Assembly: GCA_964535515.1 (NCBI GenBank)
Contig: CAZHTA010000006.1
Location: 1-57,026 of the forward strand
DNA length: 57,026 nt
Direction of reading: 5' to 3'
Source of the DNA: an uncultured Gammaproteobacteria bacterium
GTDB taxonomy: Bacteria; Patescibacteriota; Patescibacteriia; Magasanikbacterales; GWA2-37-8
Below, in pieces: positions 9,091-56,626 of this stretch (positions are counted from its first letter, which is position 1; every line of letters starts with the position of its first letter). A program made the translations under genes and the position numbers. The notes beneath the pieces were generated by a model. It did no database searches. It was not told the DNA's origin and saw only the letters and a program-made list of their open reading frames with translations.

Positions 9091-9459
9091 TTAAAGACCT
9101 AACCGTTCCCTAACCTTTTTCACCACATCATTTATATTCCAATCTGATTTTACTAAATAATCAAAGGACTTGTTTTTAATTGCTTCAGTCACTTTTGTTT
9201 CATCAGATAAATTTGTAAGCATAATTACCGGAACATCTTTCCCCCAGCTATCTCGCCTTAATCTTTCTAGCATCGTTAGTCCATCCATTTTAGGCATGAT
9301 TATATCCAACAAAATTAAATCCGGATGCTCAGTCAAGGCTAATTCCAAACCTTCTTCGCCATCATGACCAAGTAAAACAGAAAATTTTTCTTTTGCAAAC
9401 TTTGTGGTTAAGGCTTTCAACAAAGAGGTTTCATCTTCCACAATTAAAATCTTTTTCAT
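9091..9459 (-). CDS. single-domain (CheY-like) response regulator
   Basis: 122 aa with KILIVEDE, DLILLDIIMPKMDG and a conserved Lys (LVKS). No output domain. Confidence 0.9.
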   Translation of the reverse strand: MKKILIVEDETSLLKALTTKFAKEKFSVLLGHDGEEGLELALTEHPDLILLDIIMPKMDGLTMLERLRRDSWGKDVPVIMLTNLSDETKVTEAIKNKSFDYLVKSDWNINDVVKKVRERLGL

Positions 9460-9635
9460 ATTAGATTATTTAATTCCATTCTTTCCAGATCCTTTAGATG
9501 ATTCAGTGCTTGTTCTACCGATCTTGCTGTTACCACCGAAAATTCGCCTTTTTCTAATTTCATCCGAATGGCATTTTGCAGAGGCATTTCATCTTCTAGC
9601 ACTAAAATTATCTTATCGTTTTTAATTCCTGACAT
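9456..9635 (-). pseudogene. 59-codon ORF encoding only the N-terminal half of a receiver domain
   Basis: Hand translation gives MSGIKNDKIILVLEDEMPLQNAIRMKLEKGEFSVVTARSVEQALNHLKDLERMELNNLI. It stops (ATGA overlap with the next REC gene) before the phospho-acceptor Asp strand. It is below the ORF-track length cutoff. Confidence 0.55.
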
Positions 9636-9665
9636 ATAAAAATAGTTATAAAACTAATGATTTAT

Positions 9666-29925: not shown

Positions 29926-30870
29926 CTACTTAATTACATGAAAAGCAGTAAATACTTTCTTTAAAAACAACGGCCCAGCGTCTACGTTATCAACTGTCAC
30001 TCGACGCCAAGAATAAAAGTTATCAACGCTTGGGCGTCCACCGGCTAACACTCTAACCGCCCCTAAATACCCTGCCTGCTTGGCTACTTCATATACTGAG
30101 GCATTAGCGAAACCATAGGGATAAGCCAAAACAAAAATTGGTACATCAAGCTTTTCTTCGATAATTGCTTTGCTGCCAGCAAACTCTTCTAACAAAACAT
30201 CCTTTGAAATATTAGCAGAATATTTATGGCTCATCGTATGTGACCCCACTTCCACCAAACCACTATCAACCATCTCTTTTAACATTTCCCAAGAAACATT
30301 ACCATTCTTCCCAACGTCCTTAGTAATCACAAATACGGTAGCGGGAATATTGTATTTCTTCAATAACGGAAAAACAATCGTGTAAAAATCTCGGTAACCA
30401 TCATCAAATGTTATCGCCAATGTCTTACGATATGGTGACAAAAATGTAGAATTATTAAACGAATACTTCAGATACGCTTCCGTCATTTTTACAAAACTAT
30501 AACCATTGTCCTGCAAATATTTAATTTGATTCTCAAAACTAGTTGGTGTTACTGACCAACGACTGTATTGATACTTTGGATTGGTACTAACACGATGATA
30601 CATTAAAATACCAAAATCGGTCTGATATTTTTCTGGATAAGTAGACGAGGCCTGCATTTTAAACGTCGAAGAATTATCCAACAAGGTTTGATCGGCTTGA
30701 CGCAACGACGCTAGCTGTTGGTCAGACGCATAATCTTCAATATCTAAACCCGAATACAAAAAAGTACTCCACCAAAACAAAAGCCCGGCAGTAATTAAAA
30801 ATACAGCGCCGAGCGATAGTATCCACTTTAAATTTTTGTGATGGCTAAAAAATTTCATCCTACAAAACAA
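29926..30870 (-). CDS. polysaccharide deacetylase (NodB homology domain)
   Basis: 314 aa with a TM anchor, ITFDDGYRDF and GSHTMSH. An alternative start at MKFF (30858) would remove the overlap with leuS. Confidence 0.85.
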   Translation of the reverse strand: MFCRMKFFSHHKNLKWILSLGAVFLITAGLLFWWSTFLYSGLDIEDYASDQQLASLRQADQTLLDNSSTFKMQASSTYPEKYQTDFGILMYHRVSTNPKYQYSRWSVTPTSFENQIKYLQDNGYSFVKMTEAYLKYSFNNSTFLSPYRKTLAITFDDGYRDFYTIVFPLLKKYNIPATVFVITKDVGKNGNVSWEMLKEMVDSGLVEVGSHTMSHKYSANISKDVLLEEFAGSKAIIEEKLDVPIFVLAYPYGFANASVYEVAKQAGYLGAVRVLAGGRPSVDNFYSWRRVTVDNVDAGPLFLKKVFTAFHVIK

Positions 30871-33800: not shown

Positions 33801-34303
33801 TTCGCCAAACCCGTCTTGCACTCTGGACACCAATTAATTGGCTCATACGATTCAAACGCTAAGCCACGTTTAAACATTTCAATAAACGCCCATTGTGTCC
33901 ATTTGTAATATTTTGGATCAGTAGTATTTACTTCTCGATCCCAATCATAGGTAAAACCTAAAAGACCAAGCTGTTTTTTAAAAGTTTCAATATTCTCCGC
34001 TGTAGCAACCGCCGGATGTACTTTGTTTTTAATTGCGTAGTTTTCTGCTGGCAAACCAAATGCATCCCAACCCATTGGATGTAATACATTGTACCCTTGC
34101 ATCATCTTCATTCGTGCAACAATATCGGTCGCAATATATCCCTTCGGATGACCGACATGTAAACCAGCGCCAGACGGATATGGGAACATATCCAAAACAT
34201 AGTACTTTGGCTTATCACTACCCTCTTTAGTTTTGTAAGTCCCATTATCTCCCCAATATTTCTGCCATTTCTTCTCAATTTTCTTATGGTCGTATTTTTT
34301 CAT
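30860..34303 (-). CDS. leuS: leucyl-tRNA synthetase with inserted Nudix and alpha/beta serine-hydrolase domains
   Basis: 1147 aa with HIGH (HVGH), TTRPDT, AHDERDFEFA, RDWVFSRQRYWGEPIP and KMSKR. The extra Nudix box is GGVESGEEPSATGAREITEETGY (aa 417-439). The extra YdeN-like module is at about aa 587-785 (GHSLG). Confidence 0.95.
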   Translation of the reverse strand: MKKYDHKKIEKKWQKYWGDNGTYKTKEGSDKPKYYVLDMFPYPSGAGLHVGHPKGYIATDIVARMKMMQGYNVLHPMGWDAFGLPAENYAIKNKVHPAVATAENIETFKKQLGLLGFTYDWDREVNTTDPKYYKWTQWAFIEMFKRGLAFESYEPINWCPECKTGLANEDLDNGLCERCGSQVEQKPMRQWVLKITDYAERMLKDLDQLKGWPESIKLMQKEWIGKSEGALLKFDIKGTEDKLEVFTTRPDTLFGATYCVMAPEHELVKKLSEKIKNWDSVEEYISNARKKTSLERTELQKDKTGVELKGIKAINPVNKEELPIFIADYVLTGYGTGAIMAVPAHDERDFEFARKYDLPIREVVAPLTVRTEGPDAVKDGVPFKERNAVVCVVKHWSEDKYMGIRWNNTYWQGFVIGGVESGEEPSATGAREITEETGYKNVEFVGFVGGTVHAQFYQAAKQENRFAHFVPLLFKLKDGEQAEIEEKEKALHEIKWLTSEEMDSFVTHEDMKIIWRRVRGNELYSGVGILENSGQFSGTNSEEAKKVITEFAGGKLTTNYKLRDWVFSRQRYWGEPIPLVHCEKCKNKKLKILLIHGVCGHSKENWFPWFKEEMESKGFDVLIPDMVNAEHPTLEEWTDQLSKLGLTKEDKLYVIGHSLGAPAACQFILKNNLAVEKLILVAPTGVSQGEANWDNLSKAGCKEESIESIRSFNKQNFDLDKLKNLASERVVYLSDNDPYIPMNVEGDYSALEATVKVFKNKGHFSAGSGVNELPEITEEFSRNVNSGWVPVPESELPLELPKVKNYEPSGTGESPLVNITDWVNTKCPTCGGPAKRETNTMPQWAGSCWYYLRYIDPNNSNALVDKEKEKYWSPIDLYVGGAEHATRHLIYARFWHKFLYDIGVVSYPEPFTRLQNVGLILAADGRKMSKRWGNVINPNEVVEEYGADSMRLYEMFMGPFDQPCAWNMQGLVGMKRFLEKVWSLQEKINEREPDSKLVIALHQTIKKITEDVEAMRFNTAIAQLMTFVNELSKADSVNKEMYLTLIKLVSPFAPHLSDELFEQFNGKGTVFESAWPKFDVALTKDETITLAVQINGKLRDTLEVAADISEDEAKKVALESEKVQKWLEGKEPKKVIYVKGKLVSIVL

Positions 34304-35770: not shown

Positions 35771-35798
35771 TTGACTAAAACACTAATTATGGTAATAT
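35771..35798 (+). promoter_or_regulatory. promoter of high-GC cassette 1
   Basis: TTGACT (35771-35776), 16-nt spacer, TAATAT (35793-35798), in AT-rich DNA about 40 nt before the GC-rich block. Confidence 0.55.
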
Positions 35799-35837
35799 CC
35801 TAACCAATAGTGCGCAAATTGGAGGGGAGGGATACTC

Positions 35838-36044
35838 ATGCTGAGAACAACGTTCAAGCGCATGGCGCGCGATCTCTTCGGCAACCTCGCGGTTGCCGGA
35901 ATCACCCTGGTGGCTCTGCCACCACTCCTGGGTCTGAAGGCGGCTGTGATCACGACCGCCGTCGCTGCCAACATGGCCGAGGCCGCGGTTCACGCCGCGG
36001 AGAAGACCATCATCGCCTTCTTCCTCGTCCCCACCGAAACCTAG
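35838..36044 (+). CDS. small hydrophobic protein (68 aa), high-GC cassette 1, gene a
   Basis: The SD GGAGGGGAGGG lies 7 nt before the ATG. The product has a basic N-terminus followed by Ala/Val/Leu-rich helices (GNLAVAGITLVALPPLLGLKAAVITTAVAA). Confidence 0.6.
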   Translation: MLRTTFKRMARDLFGNLAVAGITLVALPPLLGLKAAVITTAVAANMAEAAVHAAEKTIIAFFLVPTET

Positions 36045-36082
36045 CGGGAACACCGCGTTCGGCACCCGCCGAGGAGGTAATC

Positions 36083-36280
36083 TTGCTGGACATTGCAAGC
36101 GATATCGTCGAAAAAGGCTACGACACCCTCACCGAGCCCTTGCACCGCCGCCGGCCACTGGCTGGCGACCTGGTCGAATTCATCCTGTGCATCGGCACCC
36201 TCCTTGTATTTGGCGCCGCCGCCACCCTCTTCACCCAAGAAGGGCGAGCCTGGGCCAAGCGCATCACCACCTTCAACTGA
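36083..36280 (+). CDS. small membrane protein (65 aa, TTG start), high-GC cassette 1, gene b
   Basis: The SD GAGGAGG lies 5 nt before TTG 36083. There is one TM helix (LVEFILCIGTLLVFGAAATLF). It is the C-terminal part of ORF-track frame 35810..36280, whose upstream part overlaps gene a out of frame. Confidence 0.5.
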   Translation: MLDIASDIVEKGYDTLTEPLHRRRPLAGDLVEFILCIGTLLVFGAAATLFTQEGRAWAKRITTFN

Positions 36281-36341
36281 CAAAGTTGAAACCAGTTATT
36301 CCTGCCAACTGGCCAAAAAGGCAGGATCTATCGAAATTAAA

Positions 36342-36376
36342 ATGAGCTCCGAATTTACGGAGCTCATTTATTTTTC
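36342..36376. terminator. bidirectional terminator between cassette 1 and gdh
   Basis: ATGAGCTCCG-aattta-CGGAGCTCAT followed by TTTATTTTT. Confidence 0.7.
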
Positions 36377-37605
36377 TAAATTTTAATCTTACTTGCTACC
36401 CGTTCAACCGCCTTAACAAATGCGGCCGTACGCATATCAATGTCGTACTTCTCTTTTGTCTCCCACACTTCACTAAACGCCAACACCATCATTGGTTCTA
36501 ATTTAGCAAACACCTGGGTTTCCGTCCATTTCTCGTTTTTAATATTTTGTTCCCACTCAAAACAAGAAACTGTCACACCACCCGCATTAGCTAATACATC
36601 TGGCACTAACACTACTCCTAGACTTCTCAAAATCTCATCTGCTTCCGGTGTAGTTGGACCATTGGCCATTTCGATTATTACTTTCGCCTTAATGTTATTA
36701 ACGTTATCTTTCGTAATCTGATTTTCCATTGCTGCTGGCACTAAGATATCTACCGGCAACTCCAACAGCTCCTCGTTAGTAACATTTTGTGTTCCTGTTA
36801 AATTTTGTACTGAGCCAGTTTCTTCTTTGTGTTTAAACACGGCATCTAAATCTAAATTCTCTGAATACACACCACCTTTGGAGTCGCTAATTGCTACTAC
36901 TTTGTAACCTTCACTTTTCAAGATCTTGGCCATAAAACCACCGACATTACCCATACCTTGAATGGCCACTTTGGTAACACTTGGATCTAACCCTAATTTT
37001 TTTGCTAATTCTTTTACCACATATACCCCACCTTGAGCCGTAGCAGTTTCGCGCCCTTCAGAACCACCGTCCGCAATTGCTTTACCAGTAATTACACCGG
37101 GATCAGCATGACCTAAAAGTTTTTCAAATTCATCACGCATCCAGCCCATAATCTGAGGAGTGGTATACATATCTGGTGCTGGCACATCTTTGTCTGACCC
37201 AATCTCACGCCAAATTTTTTGAATATATCCTCGTGACAATCTTTCTAATTCACCCACTGATAACTTTTTAGAATCAACTATCACTCCACCTTTGCCACCA
37301 CCCATTGGAATATTTACAGTTGCACATTTTACCATCATCCAAAAAGACAAAGCTTTTACTTCATCGACTGACACATTCTGGTGATACCTAATACCACCCT
37401 TGTAAGGACCCATGGCGTCATTAAACTGCGAACGATACCCGGTGAATACATTAACCTCGCCATTATCCATCCGCACTGGGATAGCAACAGTTAAAATGCG
37501 ATCCGGTTGTTTCAGTATGGCATGAATATTTTTATCAAGATTCATTATCTTGGCGGCCTTATCAAGCTGGGCCATGGCGTTAGAGAAAGGATTACTGTTT
37601 TCCAT
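36376..37605 (-). CDS. gdhA: Glu/Leu/Phe/Val-family dehydrogenase, most likely glutamate dehydrogenase
   Basis: 409 aa with the catalytic Lys motif (NIPMGGGKGGV) and a Rossmann motif (GMGNVGG). Confidence 0.9.
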   Translation of the reverse strand: MENSNPFSNAMAQLDKAAKIMNLDKNIHAILKQPDRILTVAIPVRMDNGEVNVFTGYRSQFNDAMGPYKGGIRYHQNVSVDEVKALSFWMMVKCATVNIPMGGGKGGVIVDSKKLSVGELERLSRGYIQKIWREIGSDKDVPAPDMYTTPQIMGWMRDEFEKLLGHADPGVITGKAIADGGSEGRETATAQGGVYVVKELAKKLGLDPSVTKVAIQGMGNVGGFMAKILKSEGYKVVAISDSKGGVYSENLDLDAVFKHKEETGSVQNLTGTQNVTNEELLELPVDILVPAAMENQITKDNVNNIKAKVIIEMANGPTTPEADEILRSLGVVLVPDVLANAGGVTVSCFEWEQNIKNEKWTETQVFAKLEPMMVLAFSEVWETKEKYDIDMRTAAFVKAVERVASKIKI

Positions 37606-37687
37606 ATCTTTTATATAGCTAGATTATATTAATTAAAAAGGAATATCTTTGTTTTAAAAACCCACCAAGTGTTTAGAGGGTAACTAC

Positions 37688-37715
37688 ATTTTACGCCTTC
37701 CAAAATTGACGTCAA
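37688..37715 (-). promoter_or_regulatory. gdh promoter
   Basis: Minus strand TTGACG (37710-37715), 16-nt spacer, TAAAAT (37688-37693). The -35 is part of a perfect 10-bp palindrome, TTGACGTCAA. Confidence 0.55.
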
Positions 37716-37792
37716 GGGAACAAAAAACCATAAAATACAAAACCCACCATAACAGGCGGATTTAATGATCATACAGCAAGATTATGAAGAAA

Positions 37793-46805: not shown

Positions 46806-47399
46806 GTGCTTTACGAACTCTATGACCGACTCAAGGTCCTCGTGTCCTGGATCGCGCTGGCGTTCTGTACCTGTGGCTTCGGCCTGTTGCCCAAAAAGAT
46901 CGGCCGCAAGCTGAAAGGCGGCGGAACGATCGGGAGTATCGTCGGCCTTCTGCTCGCCGCTACTCTCGAGTACACGGGCAACTCGTGGATGTCGATTGGG
47001 CTCATCCCGATTCTGTTCATCCTCGGACGTTGGGCAATTCCACCGGCCGAACGGCTCTTGGCCCTACGTTGGGGTCCGATGCGACGCCACAAAGGCGAAA
47101 AAGAAGTAGTGCGGGACTACAACGTCGTGAATATCGACGAAGTGATCCCCGGACTGCTCTTCGGCCTCATCGCCTGCTTCCACAGCAGCTGGTGGATGGC
47201 CGAAATCGGAATGACCATCATCTTCCGATTCGTAGATAGCAGCAAGCCCTGGCCAGTGAACGTCATCGAAAACAGACTGCAACGCAGCTACCCGCTCGAC
47301 GTCCTCGTGGACGATCTGGCAGGAGCAGTGTACACGGTTCTGATTTACGAGGCGACCAACTGGTACTTCACGCAGCCCTGGGTGTACTTCAGCCTGTGA
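46806..47399 (+). CDS. pgpA: phosphatidylglycerophosphatase A-like protein (high-GC cassette 5)
   Basis: 197 aa with a GTG start 5 nt after GGGGG. PgpA-like motifs are present (GGGTIGSIVGLL, NIDEVIPGL, VDSSKPWPV, LVDDLAGAVYT). Confidence 0.7.
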   Translation: MLYELYDRLKVLVSWIALAFCTCGFGLLPKKIGRKLKGGGTIGSIVGLLLAATLEYTGNSWMSIGLIPILFILGRWAIPPAERLLALRWGPMRRHKGEKEVVRDYNVVNIDEVIPGLLFGLIACFHSSWWMAEIGMTIIFRFVDSSKPWPVNVIENRLQRSYPLDVLVDDLAGAVYTVLIYEATNWYFTQPWVYFSL

Positions 47400-47426
47400 C
47401 ACCCAGGCAGTTCGTAACGCATGAAC

Positions 47427-47455
47427 GCCCGCGACTTCGGTCGCGGGCTTCGTGT
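47427..47455 (+). terminator. GC-rich UUCG-loop terminator of cassette 5
   Basis: GCCCGCGAC-ttcg-GTCGCGGGC followed by TTCGTGT. A second AT-type hairpin, ACACCGGAC/GTCTGGTGT, follows and serves typA on the other strand. Confidence 0.65.
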
Positions 47456-47517
47456 ATATATTAAAAAACACCGGACCGATTAAGTCTGGTGTTTTGATTT
47501 AATTTTTTTGAAAACTT

Positions 47518-49329
47518 TTAACTCATTCCTTTGGCTTTACGTTTAGCATCATCCTCATCTAAAACCATCTTTCTAATACGAACACTTTTAGGAGTAGCTT
47601 CTACTAATTCATCATCGCCAATATATTCTAACGCATCTTCAAGTCCCATGGTACGAGGAGTATTAAACCACTCTGATACACCATCGCCTTTGGAACGCAT
47701 ATTAGACAACGCTTTAGTCTTACAAACATTCACGCGCAAATCGCCAGTATGTGAGTTCTGTCCAACCACTTGTCCTTTGTATACTTTAACCGCAACACCA
47801 AAAAACAATTCACCACGTTCTTGAATGTTAAGTAAACCATACATATTAGTAACACCCGTCTCGTGCGCCACAAGAGAACCCTGATCACGTTCTCTCCAAG
47901 CACCGCTATCTTCATCATACCCAGCAAAAGTGGTATTGATAATACCCAACCCTCGTGTATCAGTTAAAAACTCATGACGAAAACCAAACAAACCTTTAGT
48001 TGGAATTAAAAATTCAAGTGAAGCAATACCATCAACATTTTGAATATTTTTTAAAATACCATGACGAGAACCAAGCTTTTGAATCACAACACCAGAAGTT
48101 GCTTCTGGGGTTTCGATAAACACCTGTTCAAAAGGTGCTAAAGTTTTCCCATCTACTTCTTTTAAAATTACCCGTGGACGTGATACTTGCAATTCAAACC
48201 CTTCACGACGAAGACGTTCAATCAAAATTGCTAAATGTAATTCACCGCGACCAGCGACAATCCAATCACCGTTGGTTCCATCTTCTACTTGTAAGGCCAC
48301 ATCACGTTCTAGTTCTTTGTAAAGTCTCTCACGAATCTGACGAGAAGTAGTAAACTCACCTTCTTGACCAGCAAACGGAGAATCATTAACCATGAAGGTC
48401 ATTTTTACAGTTGGTTCTTCAATCGTCAAAACTGGTAATGCAATTGGGTTGTCAACCGCCGCAATCGTGTCCCCAATAGTAATTTCTGGGATGCCGGCTA
48501 AAGCCACGATATCACCAGCTGACGCTTCGGTAACTGGAACTTTTTCTAAACCAGAAAAAGACATCATCGCGGTTAAACGACATTTTTTCATTTCTCCTGT
48601 ACGACTGATGTGCATTATATCTTGATTGGCTTTTAAAACACCGTTGTAAATTCTCCCAATCGCAATACGACCAAGATAGTTATCGTAGTTAGTTGATACG
48701 GCCAACATCTGTAATGGCGCAGCAACGTCTCCACTTGGTGCTGGTACATATTTTAAAATACTTTCAAACACCGCGCTGATATCAGTCATCTTTTCCATGT
48801 CTGGTTCAAGACCGGCTTTTCCTTGTTTAGCAACAGCATACACCACGGGAAAATCTGCAATCTCATCACTTGCTCCTAGCTCTAAAAACAATTCTAAAGT
48901 TTTATCTAATACATAGCTAATACGAGCAGCTGGTTTATCAATTTTGTTAATAACTACAATAATCTTGTGGCCCATCTGCAGCGCTTTCTTTAAAACAAAT
49001 CTAGTCTGTGGCATTGGCCCTTCTTGCGCATCAACCAAAAGCAAACAGCCATCAGCCATCTTCAAAACCCGTTCTACCTCACCGCCAAAGTCCGCGTGGC
49101 CTGGGGTATCAATAATATTAATTTTAGTTCCCTGCCATTCAACGGCGGCATTTTTAGAGAAAATGGTAATACCGCGTTCACGCTCTAAGTCATTGCTATC
49201 CATAATACAAACCTGATCAACCACCTCTTTTTTAAGGGTGGTTTTGGATTGACGAAGCAAGGCATCCACAAGTGTGGTTTTGCCGTGGTCAACGTGAGCA
49301 ATGATAGCGACGTTACGGATGTTTAACAT
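47518..49329 (-). CDS. typA: translational GTPase TypA/BipA
   Basis: 603 aa with AHVDHGKTTLVD, DTPGH and NKID. Confidence 0.95.
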   Translation of the reverse strand: MLNIRNVAIIAHVDHGKTTLVDALLRQSKTTLKKEVVDQVCIMDSNDLERERGITIFSKNAAVEWQGTKINIIDTPGHADFGGEVERVLKMADGCLLLVDAQEGPMPQTRFVLKKALQMGHKIIVVINKIDKPAARISYVLDKTLELFLELGASDEIADFPVVYAVAKQGKAGLEPDMEKMTDISAVFESILKYVPAPSGDVAAPLQMLAVSTNYDNYLGRIAIGRIYNGVLKANQDIMHISRTGEMKKCRLTAMMSFSGLEKVPVTEASAGDIVALAGIPEITIGDTIAAVDNPIALPVLTIEEPTVKMTFMVNDSPFAGQEGEFTTSRQIRERLYKELERDVALQVEDGTNGDWIVAGRGELHLAILIERLRREGFELQVSRPRVILKEVDGKTLAPFEQVFIETPEATSGVVIQKLGSRHGILKNIQNVDGIASLEFLIPTKGLFGFRHEFLTDTRGLGIINTTFAGYDEDSGAWRERDQGSLVAHETGVTNMYGLLNIQERGELFFGVAVKVYKGQVVGQNSHTGDLRVNVCKTKALSNMRSKGDGVSEWFNTPRTMGLEDALEYIGDDELVEATPKSVRIRKMVLDEDDAKRKAKGMS

Positions 49330-49382
49330 AACTTAAATAAAATATTGGCTCGAGAAAAGCCAACAAAGACTAACTTGGCCAA

Positions 49383-49411
49383 ATTATACCTTATTTATTG
49401 GGTTTTGTCAA
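49383..49411 (-). promoter_or_regulatory. typA promoter
   Basis: Minus strand TTGACA (49406-49411), 17-nt spacer, TATAAT (49383-49388). Confidence 0.6.
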
Positions 49412-49427
49412 CCTGTCCCCAATCAGA

Positions 49428-49456
49428 TTGACACCTCCACCCTTTTGTGCTACAAT
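49428..49456 (+). promoter_or_regulatory. rny promoter, about 245 nt upstream of the start codon
   Basis: TTGACA (49428-49433), 17-nt spacer, TACAAT (49451-49456). Confidence 0.6.
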
Positions 49457-49706
49457 AATGATGCTTATTTTATTATTAACACGGTTGTTCTCTGCCCATA
49501 GTTGTAGAGAAAACGATAGTTAAGAGCAAACTCCGTCGTCCAAATATACCACTACTGGAACGGATAAAATATGATTTTTTACATGTTTTCTAACCTTTTG
49601 AAATCTTTTTCTTCTCTTGAAGAAACTCTCAAAGGAAAGTCATAGGACTCTTCTCTATTTGTATTTCTCTAAAACTAAAGGCAACAACCTTTGAAATTTT
49701 TTGTAT

Positions 49707-51233
49707 ATGAACGAATTAATTATCCTAGCAGTTGCTTTGATCGCCGTTGGTGCTGGTTTTGTCATTGGCTACTTTTTACGTAAAAAGTTAGCCCAAGCCC
49801 AAGCCAACTCAATCGAAGCTCGAGCGGAACGAATGTTGATTGAGGCTAAAACCAAACAACAGGAGTTTATCTTAGAAGCTAAAGAAAAGGCCGTAAAAAT
49901 TATCGAGGAAGCCAAACGCGAAGAAAAGCAAACCCGCCAAGAACTACACAGTGAAAAACAACGTTTGGAAAAACGTGAAACCATGTTTGACCAAAAACTT
50001 TTGGAATTCCAAGATACTCAAACCAAACTACAAGAAAAGGTAGAGCGAGTAAAACAGATCAAACAAGAGATCGAAAATTTGAAATTGCAAGAAATGGAAA
50101 AACTCCAAGTAGTGGCAAACATGACCAACGAAGAAGCCAAAATGGAGTTACTAAAAATGGTAGAGGAAGAAAGTCAAGCCGACTTGCTAGCACGCATGAT
50201 GAAACTAGACCGAGAGTCTAGTGACAAATACGAAGAAAAAGCGCGTGAGATTATCATCGACGCTATTCAACGTACCGCTTCTTCTCATGCCGCTGAAACC
50301 ACCTCTTCCATCGTCACTTTACCAAGCGAAGAAATGAAGGGTCGTATTATCGGTAAAGAAGGACGCAATATTAAAACTATCGAAAAACTAACTGGCTGCG
50401 AATTGATCATCGACGATACTCCAGAGTCAATCATGATCTCCTGCTTCTCCCCTATCCGTCGTGAAGTAGCTAGACTATCTTTAGAAAAATTAATGGCTGA
50501 TGGCCGCATCCAACCAGCTCGCATTGAAGAGTTTGTTGAAAAAGCTAAACAAGACCTATCGCTTGATATTAAAAAAGCCGGCGAAGAAGCCTTGTACAAA
50601 ATGGCGATCACTGGTATTGATCCAAAACTAGTAAACATTGTTGGTCGTTTAAAATATCGCACTTCCTACGGTCAAAATATTTTAAACCACTCGATGGAAG
50701 TGGGTTACTTGTCTGCTCTAATCGCCGCTGAACTTGGTTTAGACCAAGCCAAAGCCAAGAAGGCTGGTTTGTTCCATGATATTGGTAAAGCTGTTGACCA
50801 AGAAACCCAAGGTTCTCACCCAGACATCGGCTATACTATTCTTAAGAAATTTAACGCTGACGAAGATATCTGCCAAGCCGCTCGTGATCATCACCTTGAT
50901 AAACCACAGAGCGTCTACGCCACTATCGTCAAAGCCGCTGATGCTATCTCTGGCTCACGTATTGGTGCAAGAAAAGATACCTACGAACACTTTGTCGCTC
51001 GTCTAGAAGAATTAGAAAAAACTGCTACTGGATTCCCTGGTGTTGATAAGGTATATGCTATCCAAGCTGGTCGTGAAATTCGTGTGTTTGTTAAACCAAA
51101 CGAAATCGATGACTACGCTGCTGTACAGCTATCTAAAGATATCGCCCACAAGATTGAAGAAGAATTGCAATATCCTGGTGAAATTCGTGTTACCATTATC
51201 CGCGAAACTCGCGTGGTAGAATACGCTCGCTAA
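49707..51233 (+). CDS. rny: ribonuclease Y
   Basis: N-terminal TM, coiled coil, KH (GRIIGKEGRNIKTIE) and HD domain (LFHDIGK). The ATG at 49707 is preferred; TTG 49701 is an alternative. Confidence 0.93.
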   Translation: MNELIILAVALIAVGAGFVIGYFLRKKLAQAQANSIEARAERMLIEAKTKQQEFILEAKEKAVKIIEEAKREEKQTRQELHSEKQRLEKRETMFDQKLLEFQDTQTKLQEKVERVKQIKQEIENLKLQEMEKLQVVANMTNEEAKMELLKMVEEESQADLLARMMKLDRESSDKYEEKAREIIIDAIQRTASSHAAETTSSIVTLPSEEMKGRIIGKEGRNIKTIEKLTGCELIIDDTPESIMISCFSPIRREVARLSLEKLMADGRIQPARIEEFVEKAKQDLSLDIKKAGEEALYKMAITGIDPKLVNIVGRLKYRTSYGQNILNHSMEVGYLSALIAAELGLDQAKAKKAGLFHDIGKAVDQETQGSHPDIGYTILKKFNADEDICQAARDHHLDKPQSVYATIVKAADAISGSRIGARKDTYEHFVARLEELEKTATGFPGVDKVYAIQAGREIRVFVKPNEIDDYAAVQLSKDIAHKIEEELQYPGEIRVTIIRETRVVEYAR

Positions 51234-51366
51234 GCTTGTGGACAACTTTTTGGCTAATCTAGCCAAAAAAAAGTCGTGATGATATAATGCAAGTGTTGAA
51301 TACGCAAATATTTATGCGTAATCAGATATATAATAATCTACCTTTAATAAGAAAGGGGGTGAATCT

Positions 51367-51648
51367 ATGAACAAAGCTGAATTAGCACAAGTTTTAGCAG
51401 AGAAATTAAACACTTCTAAACGTGAAGCCGAAGATATGATCAACACTTTAGTTGACACTATCATGGCTACTTTGAAAAAAGGTGACGAAGTTGTGTTGAC
51501 TGGTTTTGGTGCTTTCTCTGTAAAACAACGCGCTGGACGCACTGGTGTTAACCCACAAAACCCTACTGAAAAGATTCAAATCCCACCAGTAAAAGTTCCA
51601 AAATTTAAAGCTGGCAAGGCCCTTAAAGACGCCTTAAAACACAGTTAA
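51367..51648 (+). CDS. hup: DNA-binding protein HU
   Basis: 93 aa with MNKAELA...GFGAFSVKQRAGRTGVNPQNP. It is one of the few backbone genes with an SD-like GGGGGTG. Confidence 0.93.
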   Translation: MNKAELAQVLAEKLNTSKREAEDMINTLVDTIMATLKKGDEVVLTGFGAFSVKQRAGRTGVNPQNPTEKIQIPPVKVPKFKAGKALKDALKHS

Positions 51649-51689
51649 AAAAGTAAAATCCCCAAGATACTTATCAAGGGGATTTTTAT

Positions 51690-52364
51690 TTACACATTTT
51701 TTATCAAACCTTTTATCAGACCCATCATCCTATAATATTCCTGCCTGCTATTCACTCTTATGTCTAGGGTCCCAAAAGGTAAAATATTTTTTGGCCTCAC
51801 CCCTGCACTAGCAACACTAACTTGATCAACTATTCTAAAATTACTAATCGGCAAACCTGTTGCTTCAGACCAAAAAACCTTCGCCTTTCTATAATTTAAA
51901 TTCGGATGTATATGAATGTGAGTACGTATTCTTTTATCATCTATATTTAAAATTTTCCGAATAAACTTCATAAAAATTACTACCATCTCTCGATCGGAAT
52001 TAGTAAAACTTAATTTGGGATGCCTGTTGCTTTTATACCCTTCACCCCAATAAAGAGCCGCCCCTATAAGCAGCATCTCTCTCTCGTTTATGTGGCTAAC
52101 CTTAGCGACTGACTTTAAAAAAATATCTTCATTTTCTTTCTTTATTCGTTCGGAACGCTCAACATTAAAGGCTAAAATCCCTCTTTTATGAGCCAACGCC
52201 ATATTCTTACTTAATTTATCTTGTGCAGCATTGGTTAGTTTAATATCCTTAAACCAACAACTTAACGTCCCTTTCGATTTTAAACCTAAAATTTTTATAA
52301 TTTCATTGTAACTTTTCCCTTGCAATCTAAACTTTATGGCTTGTTCTTTTAATTCTTTATGCAT
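51690..52364 (-). CDS. HTH domain protein with a LAGLIDADG-like homing-endonuclease-like core (tentative)
   Basis: 224 aa with an N-terminal HTH (GKSYNEIIKILGLKSKGTLSCW), then LLIGAALYWGEGYK and LSFTNSD..MV, which resemble a single LAGLIDADG module. Confidence 0.4.
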   Translation of the reverse strand: MHKELKEQAIKFRLQGKSYNEIIKILGLKSKGTLSCWFKDIKLTNAAQDKLSKNMALAHKRGILAFNVERSERIKKENEDIFLKSVAKVSHINEREMLLIGAALYWGEGYKSNRHPKLSFTNSDREMVVIFMKFIRKILNIDDKRIRTHIHIHPNLNYRKAKVFWSEATGLPISNFRIVDQVSVASAGVRPKNILPFGTLDIRVNSRQEYYRMMGLIKGLIKNV

Positions 52365-52434
52365 AATAACTATTTAAATTTGAACTACCTTACATAATAT
52401 ATTGTAACATATACTATAAAAATTAACAAAGGCA

Positions 52435-52462
52435 TTGACTTTTTTCTCCAAAATAGTATAAT
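52435..52462 (+). promoter_or_regulatory. tRNA-Glu promoter
   Basis: TTGACT (52435-52440), 16-nt spacer, TATAAT (52457-52462), 14 nt before the tRNA 5' end. Confidence 0.6.
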
Positions 52463-52476
52463 GCTTTCATCGTTTC

Positions 52477-52551
52477 GGCCTCATCGTCTAATGGTTAGGA
52501 CATCTCGCTTTCAATGAGAAAATACGAGTTCGATTCTCGTTGGGGCTACCA
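52477..52551 (+). tRNA. tRNA-Glu (anticodon UUC) with encoded CCA
   Basis: Hand-folded cloverleaf. Acceptor GGCCTCA/TGGGGCT (two G-U pairs), D arm GTCT-AATGGTTA-GGAC, anticodon arm TCTCG-CTTTCAA-TGAGA, T arm ACGAG-TTCGATT-CTCGT, discriminator A, then CCA. Confidence 0.85.
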
Positions 52552-52558
52552 AATTAAA

Positions 52559-52589
52559 ATCCACTTATTATAGTGGGTTTTATTTTTTT
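52559..52589 (+). terminator. terminator after tRNA-Glu
   Basis: ATCCACT-tattat-AGTGGGT followed by TTTTATTTTTTT. Confidence 0.7.
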
Positions 52590-52595
52590 ATTAAA

Positions 52596-52624
52596 TTGAC
52601 AGTTCGCTATTTTACAGATAACAT
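52596..52624 (+). promoter_or_regulatory. promoter of high-GC cassette 6
   Basis: TTGACA (52596-52601), 17-nt spacer, TAACAT (52619-52624). Confidence 0.5.
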
Positions 52625-52678
52625 TTTAATTAACTCGGAAAGGAATACACGATGCGAGTATAGCAGACGGTCAAGAAG

Positions 52679-53080
52679 GTGTACCACAACGCCTTCAACA
52701 TCCGATTTGCCATCATCTCCGCCGTATTCAACGGAATATGGGTGATGGCAATCAACAGCCCACACGGGTTTCCTGTGTGGCTTTGTGCGGGAATGACGCA
52801 AGCTGTCTCGAGCTTCTGTTCGACAGGGGTAACTGCCAGGGTGGTCCAACACTTCTCTCCAATGCATAGCGCCTTCAAAGCCTATACACTCGGAAGTGTC
52901 GTCCCTGCGATGTTGACCAGCGTAATGAGCGTGGGTGCTCATCTGGCTAACGGAACTCCTGAACCAATCTCGAGCTCGGCAATGGCCATCGGGACCAGCT
53001 TCGTCACGAGCTTCGTCACCAACTTCATCACGCGGCGTGGGTTCTTTCGCCCGCCGAACTATCCGACCACGCGGCCGTGA
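52679..53080 (+). CDS. small polytopic membrane protein (high-GC cassette 6)
   Basis: 133 aa with a GTG start and hydrophobic segments (AIISAVFNGIWVMAI, SVVPAMLTSVMSVGA, AMAIGTSFVTSFVTNFI). It is preceded by a 3-codon mini-ORF, ATG CGA GTA TAG (52652-52663), which has the well-spaced SD (AAGGA). A hairpin, GGTAGAGTACG/CGTACCCTAC, follows the stop. Confidence 0.55.
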   Translation: MYHNAFNIRFAIISAVFNGIWVMAINSPHGFPVWLCAGMTQAVSSFCSTGVTARVVQHFSPMHSAFKAYTLGSVVPAMLTSVMSVGAHLANGTPEPISSSAMAIGTSFVTSFVTNFITRRGFFRPPNYPTTRP

Positions 53081-53645
53081 GGTAGAGTACGTCTGCCCAC
53101 GGCCGTACCCTACTTCTTATATTAAACTGCTGATAATTCTGTATACCATTTTCTAATTTCCTCAAACAAAAAGTTCGACGGTCAATAAAATGATCTAAAT
53201 AACAAAACACTACCTAAATGTTGGTATTTTGTTATTTATATGGTTCGATGAAAAAACCGGCAGGACTAATGTCTGTCTTTTATTTGTACAATAATTATCA
53301 TAAAATAACAAATATGCTATAATATTAAAAGAAAGAATGAAATAACTTCACTGGCTAGAGATTTTTTTAAAATCAGAATCTCCTCCTCCCGTGAAGGACT
53401 ATCACAAGACGACGGCAAACATAAATTAAAAATAGATGGCATTACCTCTTACAATCACCAGGTAATAGAAAAATGGTACAAAGAAGCAATCGCAATAGCC
53501 GAGATTGTTGTTGCTGTAGAAAAAGAATATTTTAACCACAAAGAAAAAATAACATCGACTAATTAAAAATCTAAACCAAATTACCCAGAATACCCCAGTG
53601 CTAATAAACGTTTAAATTACCAACATAACAAACTATAACTAAAAA

Positions 53646-53669
53646 CCCCACTATTTAAGTGGGGTTTTT
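53646..53669 (+). terminator. intrinsic terminator (works on both strands)
   Basis: CCCCACT-attta-AGTGGGG flanked by A5 and T5. Confidence 0.65.
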
Positions 53670-53710
53670 AGTTACATAAAACATCGAACAACTAAACTAA
53701 AGCACTTTCT

Positions 53711-53929
53711 CTATCTATTAGCTAAAATTATACAACTTAACACAAACGCTATAGTAAAAAAGATCGCTCCATAAAAACACGGCGTTAAAAAAGGATTTAC
53801 TCCAGGCATACAACCAGTAGTACATGTATTTTTTTTAATCCAACTATATAATTCATAACCAAAATTCCCCCAAGCAAAAATCGTACCACAAAGTAAAACG
53901 ATAAATTGTGCCAAGATGATCTTGCCCAT
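53711..53929 (-). CDS. small membrane protein with four Cys
   Basis: 72 aa with two TM helices flanking WIKKNTCTTGCMPGVNPFLTPC. Confidence 0.5.
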   Translation of the reverse strand: MGKIILAQFIVLLCGTIFAWGNFGYELYSWIKKNTCTTGCMPGVNPFLTPCFYGAIFFTIAFVLSCIILANR

Positions 53930-54072
53930 ATATAATTAAAAATTATTTTATTGCGGTAAATAACCGCATATATTAATATTATACCAAATTTCCTTTAAAC
54001 CTAGCAACGTGTCTACCATAAAGAGTAATGCTATGGTAGAATAACTGAAGAAATAACCACTAATACAACAAC

Positions 54073-54708
54073 ATGCCCAACAAAAATACCCGCCTAATAT
54101 TTTTTATAATATATTTCTCAATATTTTTTGTTCTACCTATTTTTATTGCTATCCCCCATTTTAATCCCGACCATGACCTTAAAATACTCCTCTACGCTTT
54201 CTTTTTGGTCTTTACGATCTCATACCTACGAAACGAATGGAAAATGTTCCCCAAAGAAAAATATCTACTCACTTTTATTCCGTTTATACTAAACCTGCTA
54301 ATTATCACCTTTAGCCATAACTGGAAATCAATATCAAATAATATACTAATTAGCTGGGCAATAACATTCACCAGTATAATGTGTGCAGAAATATTACAAT
54401 CTCTCTACAAAGAATTTACAATAGTAAATATAAAAAAAGAAAACTGGGAAAACACCGAAACCCCTTTCCTAAAAAAATATTGGCGACAAAAGTTTTTTAA
54501 ACAAACAACCTACCTAGGAGGCCCACTATTCTTATTATTCTCGTCCTCAATAATCAGCTTCTCAATATTCCTGGTCATAATATATCCCGATTATATAAAC
54601 ACCTACCAATACCCACAAAACCTAACGGCTGGAATATATGTACTAATATCCTTTATTCTTGGCACAATCAACTATTTACGCGTTTTCAAGAATCAACCAA
54701 CTGACTAA
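54073..54708 (+). CDS. polytopic membrane protein, unknown function
   Basis: 211 aa with about 6 hydrophobic helices. It is very AT-rich, like the backbone. Confidence 0.55.
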   Translation: MPNKNTRLIFFIIYFSIFFVLPIFIAIPHFNPDHDLKILLYAFFLVFTISYLRNEWKMFPKEKYLLTFIPFILNLLIITFSHNWKSISNNILISWAITFTSIMCAEILQSLYKEFTIVNIKKENWENTETPFLKKYWRQKFFKQTTYLGGPLFLLFSSSIISFSIFLVIIYPDYINTYQYPQNLTAGIYVLISFILGTINYLRVFKNQPTD

Positions 54709-54741
54709 AAAAATAACACCGATTAAAAAATACCTAAACAA

Positions 54742-54770
54742 AAACTCAGCAATAACTGAGTTTTTGTTTT
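54742..54770. terminator. bidirectional terminator
   Basis: AAACTCAG-caataa-CTGAGTTT with T runs on both strands. Confidence 0.65.
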
Positions 54771-54802
54771 TATAATCATTGTCCACCACCCCCAAAGAAA
54801 CT

Positions 54803-55522
54803 CTAAAGTTTATCAAACAACAACTTAAATATTTTCTTCTGAAACTCTGCAAAAATTGGACTTTCAATTAACGTTGCAGTTTCTGAACGAAAATCAATAA
54901 ACGCTACCTTGTTCCCATATATCAATTGCGTAATGTCAAAATCAAACAGACCATACTTTGGCGGTACTACTTTTATCAACCGTCCCAAGCGTTGTTTTTT
55001 TTGTTGTCTAGTGATCTCGTTCGTAATAATTAATCTTTCTACTTCAATGCGATCACGAAAACGCAAAAGATATTCGTTGGGAATATACTTACGCGCTGCC
55101 TTATAGTTCCGCGGCGATTCATAGCGGTAAAAAATATCACCTTTCTTACAAGTTGAAACCAAATCTTCATAAACATGGCGAACACCGTGCTCACCTTCAA
55201 AATAACTGATGATCGGTTTAGTCTCAGAAACATTGTACATCTGCAATAGCGCCGGCATCTGCCCTTGCACTTCAACTTTAATACTTTCGGCAATCTTCTC
55301 TAGCTGACGCGGCGATTCAGCCAAATATACTTTGCGTTTACCATGGCGCGATTCAGCCACCAAATCTTTGTTCACAAGTATGGGAAGGTATTTATAAACC
55401 TGAGGACGATGTAATCCGGTTTTTTGTGCAATCTCCGCAACCGACATTGCACCCTGAGACATTAAAACCTGATAAATCTTTGCCTCAATAATCGACAAAC
55501 CAATTTTAGTAAGTATTTCCAT
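54803..55522 (-). CDS. TrmB-family HTH transcriptional regulator
   Basis: 239 aa with an N-terminal wHTH (LSIIEAKIYQVLMSQGAMSVAEIAQKTGLHRPQVYKYL). Confidence 0.75.
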   Translation of the reverse strand: MEILTKIGLSIIEAKIYQVLMSQGAMSVAEIAQKTGLHRPQVYKYLPILVNKDLVAESRHGKRKVYLAESPRQLEKIAESIKVEVQGQMPALLQMYNVSETKPIISYFEGEHGVRHVYEDLVSTCKKGDIFYRYESPRNYKAARKYIPNEYLLRFRDRIEVERLIITNEITRQQKKQRLGRLIKVVPPKYGLFDFDITQLIYGNKVAFIDFRSETATLIESPIFAEFQKKIFKLLFDKL

Positions 55523-55691
55523 AAAATGTATATTAAAAGATACACTATATATTTAATATATAACGCCTGTCATTATTAGTCAAATGAATAAACATACACA
55601 ATCCTAATTCATATTTGTATATAAATTAATACAGAATTATCGAAACAACATATAATTGCAGTAGTCCTTTAACAACCCATAGGAGAAAGAC

Positions 55692-56504
55692 ATGCTCCCC
55701 CTCAACCTGGTCCTTGTTCGTCACGGAGAGTCCGAAGGCAATGTCGCCAACAAACGTTCACGTGCAGGAGACAATCACGACTTCACCCCCGATTTCCTAA
55801 ACCGCCACAGTGCTAAGCTCCGCCTTACGGAAAAAGGCAAAGAGCAAGCCAAAGCTGCGGGGCAATGGTTAAAAGACAACGAGCTGGCGCAGTTCGACCG
55901 CCACTACGTGTCTGAATACACCCGTGCCCTGGAGACCGCAGCTTTACTTAACCTCCCTGACGCACGTTGGTACATGGATTTCCAACTCCGTGAGCGTGAT
56001 CACGGCCGTGTCGACATCGTGTCCGATGAAGTTCGCCGGACACAGTTCGCTGAGTATCTGGCTCAGCGGAAACGACACCTGTTCTATGCTCCCTGGCCCG
56101 ACGGCGAATCCATGGCTGAAACCTGCGATCGACTCCGTAACAACATCATCGGCACACTCCATCGGGAACTGGCGGACAAAAAGGTAATCATCGTGTCGCA
56201 CGGCGACATTATGAGAGCCTTCCGCGTCATTCTCGAAAGAATGCCTGCTGATGTCTACCACACAGTCGACAGTGAAGACCAACCTTGGTTCAAAATCGGC
56301 AATGGACAAGTCGTCCACTACACGAGGGTCGACCCGTTCGACTCCAAACATGTTTTGCCTCGCATGGGCTGGGTTAGATCGGTCAATCCGTTCGATCCAG
56401 ACTTTGCGGGTCACGACTGGAAGGAGATCGTTCGCAAAACATACTCGAACGAAGATTTGCTCGCGCTGGCCAACAGCTCGGCGCGACTCATCAACGACGA
56501 GTAG
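55692..56504 (+). CDS. histidine phosphatase family protein (phosphoglycerate-mutase-like), high-GC cassette 7
   Basis: 270 aa. The SD AGGAG lies 6 nt before the ATG. Motifs LVLVRHGESEGN (RHG), ERDHG and VSHGD are present. Confidence 0.8.
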   Translation: MLPLNLVLVRHGESEGNVANKRSRAGDNHDFTPDFLNRHSAKLRLTEKGKEQAKAAGQWLKDNELAQFDRHYVSEYTRALETAALLNLPDARWYMDFQLRERDHGRVDIVSDEVRRTQFAEYLAQRKRHLFYAPWPDGESMAETCDRLRNNIIGTLHRELADKKVIIVSHGDIMRAFRVILERMPADVYHTVDSEDQPWFKIGNGQVVHYTRVDPFDSKHVLPRMGWVRSVNPFDPDFAGHDWKEIVRKTYSNEDLLALANSSARLINDE

Positions 56505-56519
56505 AAAGGAGGACTAACT

Positions 56520-56550
56520 GGCGAAGCCTAACAAGCTTCGCCTTCTTCTT
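56520..56550 (+). terminator. GC-rich terminator of cassette 7
   Basis: GGCGAAGC-ctaacaa-GCTTCGCC followed by TTCTTCTT. Confidence 0.65.
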
Positions 56551-56626
56551 GATTAGAAAAGCATTTACTCTCTCGCTCTCTTGTGTTAAATTATACATAT
56601 TAAATAATCAACTACAATTAAGTAAT

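Follow-up and report, generated by a model that had tools for sequence, protein, structure and literature searches.

GC-rich islands in an AT-rich contig

The window analysed here is the complete 57,026-bp contig CAZHTA010000006.1 of NCBI assembly GCA_964535515.1, which represents a member of the Patescibacteriota (Magasanikbacterales). Its AT-rich backbone (approximately 37-39% GC) is interrupted by seven short GC-rich islands, c1 to c7. A 120-nt sliding GC scan of the whole contig recovered exactly seven blocks of 0.53-0.60 GC, all within 35.8-56.6 kb, with peak windows of 0.59-0.71 compared to a maximum of 0.533 elsewhere. The same sharply bounded blocks had been proposed in a first-pass annotation made from the letters and open reading frames (ORFs) alone, whose hand counts of 18/60, 39/60, and 35/60 G+C were exact upon recounting. 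The eight island genes have a GC content at third codon positions (GC3) of 0.63-0.81, whereas the 45 backbone genes have a mean of 0.313, a standard deviation of 0.035, and a maximum of 0.39. The island genes thus lie 9-14 standard deviations above the backbone (z-scores) in a bimodal distribution with no genes in between, which bears out the compositional distinctness claimed for them, and they share the atypical composition of classical genomic islands. The codon shift spans all codon families and is strongest from NNT to NNC. From backbone to islands, C at third positions rises from 0.11 to 0.45 and G from 0.20 to 0.30, TTC from 10% to 88%, and CTC plus CTG from 6% to 75%. Amino acid usage is shifted as well, with lysine falling from 7.8% to 3.4%, proline rising from 3.3% to 5.7%, and alanine also altered. 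Expression-driven codon bias was rejected as a cause because groEL, the pilin genes, infB, and typA are not GC-rich. Adenine mutagenesis in the style of diversity-generating retroelements was rejected because the sense strand of the islands shows no shortage of A compared with T.

Sites of the form TTGAC[AT]-N16/17-TAnnn[TA] lie upstream of c1, c2, c3, c4, c5, and c6, and c7 has a TATAAT only, all at the places given in the first-pass annotation. The -10 pattern TAnnnT given there fits c1, c3, c4, and c6, but not c2 and c5, whose -10 element ends in A. Of the eight island genes, seven are preceded by a GGAGG-type Shine-Dalgarno (SD) motif, which was seen at none of approximately 45 backbone genes. 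GC-rich 3' hairpins are present at the islands, and both observations agree with the earlier reading. The idea that the promoters had arrived with the cassettes did not hold. They are AT-rich, the c7 promoter is orthologous with that of a sister genome, and sigma-70-type promoters of the same kind serve the backbone genes typA, infB, rny, tRNA-Glu, and a toxin-antitoxin (TA) pair. Because these genes use it, the promoter type is native and not cassette-specific. The rise in GC begins only 40-50 nt upstream of the start codon (with the exception of c2 and its 140-nt leader), GC drops 50-100 nt past the stop codons, and the promoters sit in ordinary AT-rich intergenic DNA. Therefore, each island is essentially a transcribed unit behind a native promoter. 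An Rfam search of the leaders matched tRNA-Glu only, with no riboswitch or other known RNA.

Island 1 (35771-36369, plus strand) starts with the promoter TTGACT-N16-TAATAT (35771-35798) and carries two genes on the plus strand, c1a (35838-36044, 68 aa) and c1b (36083-36280, 65 aa, with a corrected TTG start), whose products have one transmembrane (TM) segment each. Its terminator hairpin (36340-36369) is convergent with gdh. Island 2 (38447-40600, plus strand) has the promoter TTGACA-N17-TATAAA (38447-38475), the SD AAGGAGG, and GC-rich 3' hairpins. The c2 coding sequence (CDS; 38641-40497, plus strand) encodes 618 aa with four TM helices, a beta-rich ectodomain, and a C-terminal coiled coil. 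An AlphaFold2 model of the protein (pLDDT 85) had no fold match in the PDB with a TM-score above 0.18. The GC-rich leader of c2 (38482-38640, plus strand, about 155 nt) contains a hairpin with a T-rich run (38599-38617) directly before the SD. This leader, in which Rfam has no match, could be an attenuator or cis-regulatory RNA.

Island 3 (44215-45055, minus strand) consists of the promoter TTGACA-N17-TAATGT (45027-45055), the c3 CDS (44235-44996, minus strand), and a 3' hairpin (44215-44234). The 253-aa c3 protein has two N-terminal TM segments and an internal two-fold repeat, PPATVR.AVE..C..T..D...C.N ... D.LD.LQYL. In island 4 (45813-46715, minus strand), the promoter TTGACT-N17-TAGTGT (46687-46715) and the SD AAGGAG precede c4 (45950-46651, minus strand), which codes for 233 aa with a signal-peptide-like N-terminus and is followed by about 140 nt of GC-rich 3' untranslated region. 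Island 5 (46723-47495, plus strand) has the promoter TTGACA-N16-TAATAA (46723-46750), a leader hairpin, the SD GGGGGA, and the c5 CDS (46806-47399, plus strand; 197 aa, PgpA domain), and ends in a hairpin (47430-47445) and a bidirectional terminator (47465-47495) common to typA. The genes c1a, c1b, c3, and c4 encode small membrane or secreted proteins and c5 a PgpA-like protein.

Island 6 (52596-53140, plus strand; promoter TTGACA-N17-TAACAT at 52596-52624) adjoins tRNA-Glu (52477-52551). Its gene c6 (52679-53080, plus strand, 133 aa, GTG start) is the least certain of all gene models and has an unusual pattern with more GC at second than at first codon positions. A mini-ORF of three codons (ATG CGA GTA TAG; 52652-52663, plus strand), preceded by a well-spaced SD as the first-pass annotation had described, lies 15 nt upstream of the GTG and could reflect either translational coupling or a mis-set c6 start. 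Island 7 (55651-56560, plus strand) comprises TATAAT (55651-55656), the SD AGGAGA, the c7 CDS (55692-56504, plus strand) for a His_Phos_1 phosphatase of 270 aa, and a 3' hairpin (56520-56542). Divergent from c7 is a gene (54803-55522, minus strand) that had been labelled trmB; its product is a TrmB-family helix-turn-helix regulator (PF01978) and no tRNA methyltransferase.

Island junctions and mobility

The contig is metagenomic in origin, a point in favour of an assembly or binning chimera of high-GC and low-GC organisms. The islands were compared with loci and contigs fetched from other assemblies (L-numbers), for which gene calls and start sites are crude. The junction of c1 with gdh is reproduced in L001 with 100% identity, the trmB-c7-MBL region is spanned in L002 (91.5% nucleotide identity) and L129 (82.5%), and GC-rich genes occupy the c3, c4, and c5 sites in L045 and L047-L049, which stem from other datasets. 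No independent copy was found for the c2 and c6 junctions; c2-type islands do occur in unrelated assemblies. In addition, the sister contig L124 ends within typA in a GC-rich stretch that is itself suspicious. Against a chimera, junctions recur in at least six other datasets with 80-100% identity (L001, L002, L045-L049, and L129), so that the c1, c7, and c3-c5 sites are not chimeric. Moreover, the islands fit exactly between native promoters and terminators, their ORFs are intact, and GC islands of the same sort exist in many unrelated assemblies. A chimera was rejected on these grounds as extremely improbable.

Pfam, NCBIfam, and PHROG scans of the cassettes and their neighbours detected no integrase, transposase, or other mobility domain, and the window contains no repeat family. 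Its sole repeat is an A-rich 9-nt direct repeat around the TA pair and c2. These results support the earlier description of blocks one gene wide that lie between conserved genes and lack mobility genes and attC-like arrays. The att-type direct repeats and mobility genes of classical genomic islands are thus missing, and c6 alone adjoins a tRNA gene. Nor do the islands form an integron array, as the window has no common 3' element and no integrase, and each unit has its own promoter. PADLOC gave no match for the islands, PHROG none except a generic His_Phos for c7, and IMG/VR viral contigs contain no relatives of c2, c5, or c7. A phage or defence origin was rejected on this basis, as was a phage moron or prophage remnant, since the neighbours include infB, truB, typA, rny, and gdh. 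PilB, PilC, pilins, and ComEC, in contrast, are encoded in the window, confirming the type IV pilus (T4P) and ComEC DNA uptake genes noted before.

An element of approximately 68 nt, composed of the truB terminator hairpin and a GAGGAGG-containing tail, has one copy in the window (45745-45812). A common attC-like element at cassette ends was rejected because this element is single in the window and no repeat family was found. It occurs twice in L045 (141-201 and 1789-1809) and in L048 (4432-4499 and 6157-6214), each time bordering a GC island, and one L048 copy is 95.6% identical to that of the window, well above backbone identity. The element may mark local duplication or recombination joints.

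Turnover at fixed sites among sister lineages

The sister lineages share 75-82% nucleotide identity with the window in the backbone, with a four-fold-site identity of only 0.41-0.53, near saturation. At the same sites they carry island genes with a GC3 of 0.80-0.90, slightly above the window versions. Most identities of the flanking Gdh, InfB, TruB, and TypA lie at 78-93%, whereas the island proteins are far more divergent: 55% identity for c1b (a c1b-like GC-rich end in L046), 35% for c3, 32% for c4 (L048), and 44-54% for c5. In the interval between infB and truB, the 253-aa c3 is replaced in L045 and L048 by a shorter GC-rich c3-like gene, which encodes 154 aa (L045 302-766); the length difference would fit a single c3 repeat copy in the sister. 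Between truB and typA, the window has c4 and c5, L048 divergent versions of both, L049 c5 only, and L124 neither. The empty site of L124 consists of the truB stop, one bidirectional terminator, and the typA stop. Likewise, L046 joins DUF4349 to gdh and lacks a 2.93-kb segment (37729-40655) with the TA pair and the c2 unit. This indel is bordered by ACAAAAAAC repeats (ACAAAAAAC at 37720-37728 and ACAAAAAAAC at 40653-40662) and contains the AT-rich gene of a ParE/YafQ-like toxin (37793-38047, minus strand) and that of the toxin partner (38051-38326, minus strand). The same interval between conserved genes thus differs in content among close relatives, as in genomic hotspots. In closely related lineages, units are acquired, lost, or exchanged for strongly diverged counterparts at identical sites.

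The c5 gene exists in several allele classes whose similarity runs against that of TypA: window and L048 share 54% identity in c5 and 89% in TypA, window and L049 45% and 93%. The c5 leader hairpin, CTCCCA(A)G..CTTGGGAG then TGTTTTGTT (window 46760-46790), is kept in L049 (reverse complement, approximately 300-330), although the c5 proteins are only 45% identical.

The first-pass annotation had interpreted the islands as repeated gene-sized acquisition from a high-GC donor and had called for a comparison with sister genomes to find empty sites. Such sites exist in L124 (c4 and c5), L049 (c4), and L046 (TA and c2). Gain and loss of gene-sized units are therefore supported; a foreign high-GC donor is not. 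The acquisitions also are not recent, because sisters near four-fold saturation hold GC-rich genes at the same sites and c2 and c7 are elevated almost everywhere. According to the amelioration model of Lawrence and Ochman, the GC3 of foreign DNA decays to the host equilibrium at about the neutral synonymous rate, and old insertions should be intermediate. The islands common to the sisters have a GC3 of 0.75-0.90 at near-saturated four-fold divergence, and the window has no genes of intermediate GC3. Plain amelioration of foreign DNA thus fits poorly.

At its end (positions 1-230, typA residues approximately 235-310), L124 shows an abrupt switch within typA at the conserved EPT..MTFMV motif. 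One part of the gene has a GC3 of 0.93-0.97 and 30-50% identity to the TypA of the window, the rest a GC3 of 0.2-0.5 and 90-100% identity. Compared with Patescibacterial TypA sequences, the GC-rich part reaches no more than 44-47% identity. Either typA is a genuinely mosaic core gene here or the contig end is chimeric; the segment was set aside as evidence of recombination because of its position at a contig end, the 44-47% identity, and the possible chimerism.

Homologues and the donor question

In composition and SD usage, the islands resemble genes of high-GC bacteria such as Actinobacteria, and host DNA could be taken up through ComEC and T4P. These features had led to the proposal that single genes were recently imported from outside the phylum, the donor being a high-GC organism that uses SD motifs and perhaps the host of the bacterium, if the latter is an episymbiont. 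The homologues point elsewhere. The 623 relatives of c7 form a smooth gradient from 98% to 48% identity, and all named matches are Patescibacterial. For c2, 102 proteins and 38 genome loci (the latter from a genome scan built on an 11-sequence alignment) were found, essentially all in Patescibacteria, with a best match of 55% identity and with Paceibacterota, Falkowbacteria, Doudnabacteria, Yanofskybacteria, Magasanikbacteria, and others among the taxa. Relatives of c5 fall into five clusters of 86-54% identity, and the orphan family of c4 numbers four representatives in 1.84 billion proteins. No homologues of c4 or c5 from GC-rich genomes were present among the 1.84 and 5.8 billion proteins searched. 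The relatives of c2, c4, c5, and c7 are Patescibacterial metagenome-assembled genomes (MAGs) or metagenome contigs with Patescibacterial synteny, and none of them offers a donor candidate outside the phylum. The families are thus internal to the phylum and not host-derived.

Several c2-bearing records (L012, L020, L027-L029, L033, L037-L039, L007, and L014) are titled 'uncultured Gammaproteobacteria', 'Acutalibacteraceae', or 'Binatia' despite Patescibacterial synteny and are probably mislabelled or contaminated MAGs.

For none of the cassettes searched did a non-Patescibacterial homologue rank near the top, which also speaks against the host as donor of c2, c4, c5, and c7. Furthermore, the SD is no donor mark, as the c2 family carries it across the phylum in genomes of 35-68% GC, low-GC copies included. 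The islands are common to sister species, and their promoters are native. Import from outside the phylum is already largely refuted and very unlikely, and of the readings considered the host-donor idea fits worst. Consistently, most horizontal gene transfer (HGT) into Patescibacteria comes from other Patescibacteria (PMC12455944).

GC3 and SD as traits of the c2 and c7 families

The c2 gene is located near infB, Trx, truB, RNase Y, and gdh also in L005, L022, L033, and L037, where IF2 is about 50% identical. Since this synteny is kept at such a distance, c2 is an old resident of the infB/truB/gdh neighbourhood. In high-GC Patescibacteria, c2 has a GC3 of 0.77-0.94 and equals its flanks, and its GC content exceeds that of the flanks by 0.07-0.22 in many low-GC genomes. 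In 28 of 30 genomes, c2 has a higher GC3 than the median flanking ORF, and it often is the top ORF of its locus. The gene tracks the GC3 of its host with a logit slope of 0.65 ± 0.14 (p = 6.5e-5) and a mean offset of +0.63 (p = 2e-6). An AGGAG/GGAGG motif 5-8 nt upstream of c2 is conserved at every genome GC, including the low-GC copies L024 and L027.

The c7 gene is GC-elevated in all six genomes where it is visible. In two genome pairs, its four-fold sites have diverged at about one third of the rate of the neighbouring genes. Between window and L002, four-fold identity is 0.856 for c7 and 0.634 for MBL; between window and L129 it is 0.707 for c7, 0.41 for MBL, and 0.53 for trmB. By standard mutation-bias arithmetic, a GC-rich neutral tract under AT-biased mutation would be expected to diverge faster than its neighbours, whereas c7 is three times slower. 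This slow divergence is limited to the c7 CDS and the 3' hairpin; the promoter DNA, AT-rich and orthologous, has diverged to the same degree as the flanks. Third-position changes in c7 were polarised by parsimony, whose bias inflates changes from common to rare states. GC->AT versus AT->GC changes amount to 8:0 on the window tip and 15:2 on the stem of window and L002, and they are roughly balanced on the L002 tip (12:9) and in L129 (8:10). The MBL backbone control gave 6:14 and 3:9. Thus, c7 is leaking toward AT in the window lineage, by our estimate approximately four times more slowly than by neutral amelioration.

In the more distant genomes of L130 (7073-11269) and L131 (3676-12913), homologues of c7 belong to GC-elevated blocks of several genes, among them those for SAICAR synthase, NAPRTase, and NAD synthase. 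Therefore, the GC-rich class is not confined to envelope genes or single genes. In L131 (8684-12913), the homologue is located between NAPRTase and NAD synthase, and JGI labels many family members 'NAD+ kinase'. This gene context and the annotations hint at a possible role of c7 in NAD salvage.

When the 1,613 ORFs of all fetched loci were clustered, 25 families had five or more low- or mid-GC members. Among these, c7 and c2 alone pair a GC3 offset (+0.99 and +0.77, respectively) with frequent SD (0.80 and 0.91); in the other 23, the offset is within ±0.24 and an SD precedes at most 33% of the members. Across low-GC loci of the candidate phyla radiation (CPR), SD frequency climbs with GC3 excess from 13 through 34 and 52 to 64%, and reverse-complement and scrambled control motifs stay at or below 12%. 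Many of the low-GC loci contain such GC islands; loci above 60% GC have none. High GC3 and SD are thus persistent gene-family traits and not a fading donor fingerprint. In terms of distribution, c2 and c7 are phylum-wide families, and c1 and c3-c5 are narrow-lineage, hypervariable envelope genes.

Many distant relatives (L059, L082, L095, L099, L110, and L122, approximately 9400-9980) have a GC-rich block of 300-500 nt directly upstream of typA that is absent from the window. It may be an RNA gene or another small island gene.

These patterns bear on a purely vertical origin, in which the genes would be GC-rich through selection at the level of translation, with a need for SD and with C- and G-ending codons tuning expression, and would not have been transferred. 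The consistency of GC3 excess and SD within the c2 and c7 families, the slowed synonymous evolution of c7, the prevalence of the NNT to NNC shift, and the dose-response of SD with GC3 are in line with such selection. So is the confinement of the GC elevation essentially to the transcribed unit (in c7 the CDS and hairpin) behind an orthologous, AT-rich promoter. However, the presence or absence of units and 'alleles' of 32-55% identity beside flanks of mostly 78-93% are hard to explain without transfer. In addition, the typical highly expressed groEL, pilin, and infB genes are not GC-rich, amino acid composition is shifted too, and some c2 copies show no offset. Vertical descent with selection alone is thus improbable.

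Probable flexible units in hotspots between conserved genes

The islands are best explained as flexible units, mostly of single genes, in hotspots free of mobile genetic elements (MGEs), which are swapped by recombination among related Patescibacteria and belong to a persistent GC-rich, SD-led gene class. We assign this reading a probability of roughly 0.55. Each unit would consist of a native AT-rich sigma-70-type promoter, an SD, a GC-rich CDS (mostly one gene), and a hairpin terminator, and would occupy an MGE-free hotspot between conserved genes of the AT-rich, SD-less backbone. Turnover may proceed via natural transformation, with T4P and ComEC for uptake and recombination in the flanking conserved genes and terminators, possibly accompanied by occasional illegitimate joins. 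The GC-rich state would be held well above the backbone equilibrium, with a slow leak to AT in the window lineage. The force could be supplied by gene flow from relatives richer in GC, by biased conversion where these loci recombine, or by selection favouring GC-rich mRNAs that depend on an SD.

Several points weigh against this interpretation. Recombination as the route of turnover is inferred; the incongruence of c5 and TypA rests on 45% versus 54% identity over approximately 180 residues on short contigs. The c2 and c7 loci were collected because the window copies are GC-rich. Furthermore, the low-GC genomes L024, L016, and L030 carry c2 with almost no GC offset; the GC trait of c2 is therefore not absolute, and transfer from GC-richer relatives is possible. 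The c2 of the window groups with other GC-elevated copies that are nested among copies from high-GC genomes. In the window lineage, c7 has accumulated 23 GC->AT and 2 AT->GC changes, a parsimony-inflated ratio that looks like amelioration. Finally, unsampled GC-rich donors of the orphan genes are possible.

The nested position of the window c2 clade and the ratio of 23:2 would instead fit intra-phylum HGT, in which every island came from a GC-richer patescibacterium and has been ameliorating since, and persistence reflects repeated independent imports into hotspots. High-GC Patescibacteria indeed carry c2 with native composition, TA and c2 form an indel relative to L046, the window islands are slightly below the sister versions in GC3, and the transfers described in the literature are mostly CPR-to-CPR (PMC12455944). 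Nevertheless, this scenario requires separate donors that delivered one family to one site in each sister lineage, and no GC-rich-genome homologues of c4 and c5 turned up among 1.84 and 5.8 billion proteins. The GC3 of c2 lies above that of the host even in high-GC hosts, with a one-sided excess at 28 of 30 loci, and the synonymous sites of c7 evolve more slowly than the backbone, not faster. GC3 in the window is bimodal without intermediates, and SD motifs precede 52-64% of island genes versus about 20% of genes in high-GC CPR loci (same crude caller). Serial import within the phylum is thus unlikely, albeit less so than vertical descent alone.

A broader proposal, which we put forward tentatively and consider less likely than not to be right as a whole, is that low-GC Patescibacteria run two compositional and translational 'dialects', an AT-rich, SD-less backbone and a minority class with a GC3 of 0.6-0.9, held over evolutionary time. 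Members of the minority class may be c2, c7, and lineage-specific envelope genes. Whatever holds up their GC3 would act on the unit that is transcribed and could be either unusually strong GC-biased conversion at recombination hotspots or selection that ties GC-rich mRNAs to SD-dependent initiation. If this proposal is true, the islands mark a gene-specific equilibrium rather than foreign origin.

Under the interpretation as flexible units, the islands also have practical consequences. Compositional islands are routinely read as recent foreign DNA, whereas here they are genes of the own phylum that kept their composition across near-saturated synonymous divergence. Therefore, composition-based HGT calls and inferences of donors or hosts in Patescibacteria would be misleading. 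The coupling of SD presence to GC3 excess (about 90 loci) suggests a two-tier translation initiation in SD-poor bacteria. Envelope-directed units that are hypervariable and keep to fixed sites are promising candidates for determinants of host or phage interaction in episymbionts.

Comparison with known systems

Phage morons, as described by Hendrix and Juhala, are single genes with their own promoter and terminator that are inserted between two resident genes and deviate in GC. The islands share this layout, with one gene behind its own promoter and before its own terminator and with a GC content unlike the surroundings. They differ in their non-prophage context and in having no PHROG or viral-contig relatives beyond the generic His_Phos for c7. 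Like integron cassettes, they are varied, gene-sized units of mostly unknown function, but they have no attC, intI, or array, carry their own promoters, and are dispersed between housekeeping genes. GC-biased gene conversion (gBGC) in bacteria was reportedly described by Lassalle et al. in 2015, and the mouse Fxy gene is an example of a gBGC hotspot. As in gBGC hotspots, GC3 jumps sharply at the island boundaries, along with faster protein divergence and an amino acid shift toward glycine, alanine, arginine, and proline. In contrast, the difference between a GC3 of 0.3 and 0.8 far exceeds reported bacterial gBGC, and the single lineage amenable to polarisation showed no bias of changes from A or T to G or C. 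If biased conversion is the true cause, this would be by far the strongest such signature in bacteria.

In naturally transformable bacteria, MGE-free hotspots with core genes on either side are over-represented, and transformation has been proposed as the mechanism (Oliveira, Touchon & Rocha 2017, PMC5635113). The islands agree with such hotspots in that accessory genes cluster in few gaps between conserved genes and turn over fast among relatives, in the absence of integrases and transposases and the presence of competence machinery. Unlike in those hotspots, the units are mostly single genes spread over six adjacent intervals. They are GC-rich in an AT-rich host, whereas accessory DNA usually is AT-richer, and they carry an SD that the backbone lacks; recombination in their flanks is inferred. 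Replacement flexible genomic islands for envelope structures, such as O-antigen or glycotype loci, are known from Alteromonas and other pangenomes (PMC4898812). There, too, one locus holds highly divergent, functionally analogous envelope genes in related strains, the composition is atypical without amelioration, and the alleles look much older than their flanks. However, replacement islands are multi-gene clusters, typically of lower GC than the core, and the units described here are 0.4-2 kb in size, of higher GC, and include the cytosolic phosphatase c7. Thus, hotspots, replacement islands, and intra-CPR HGT are already known. The open-access papers searched contained no description of GC-rich accessory units in an AT-rich core, of a coupling between SD and GC3, or of persistence at the family level.

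Outside the islands, the window encodes a leucyl-tRNA synthetase (30860-34303, minus strand, 1,147 aa). It contains two inserts, a NUDIX domain (residues 386-502) and a serine-hydrolase/alpha-beta-hydrolase domain (residues 592-780), both placed between the editing domain and the anticodon-binding domain.

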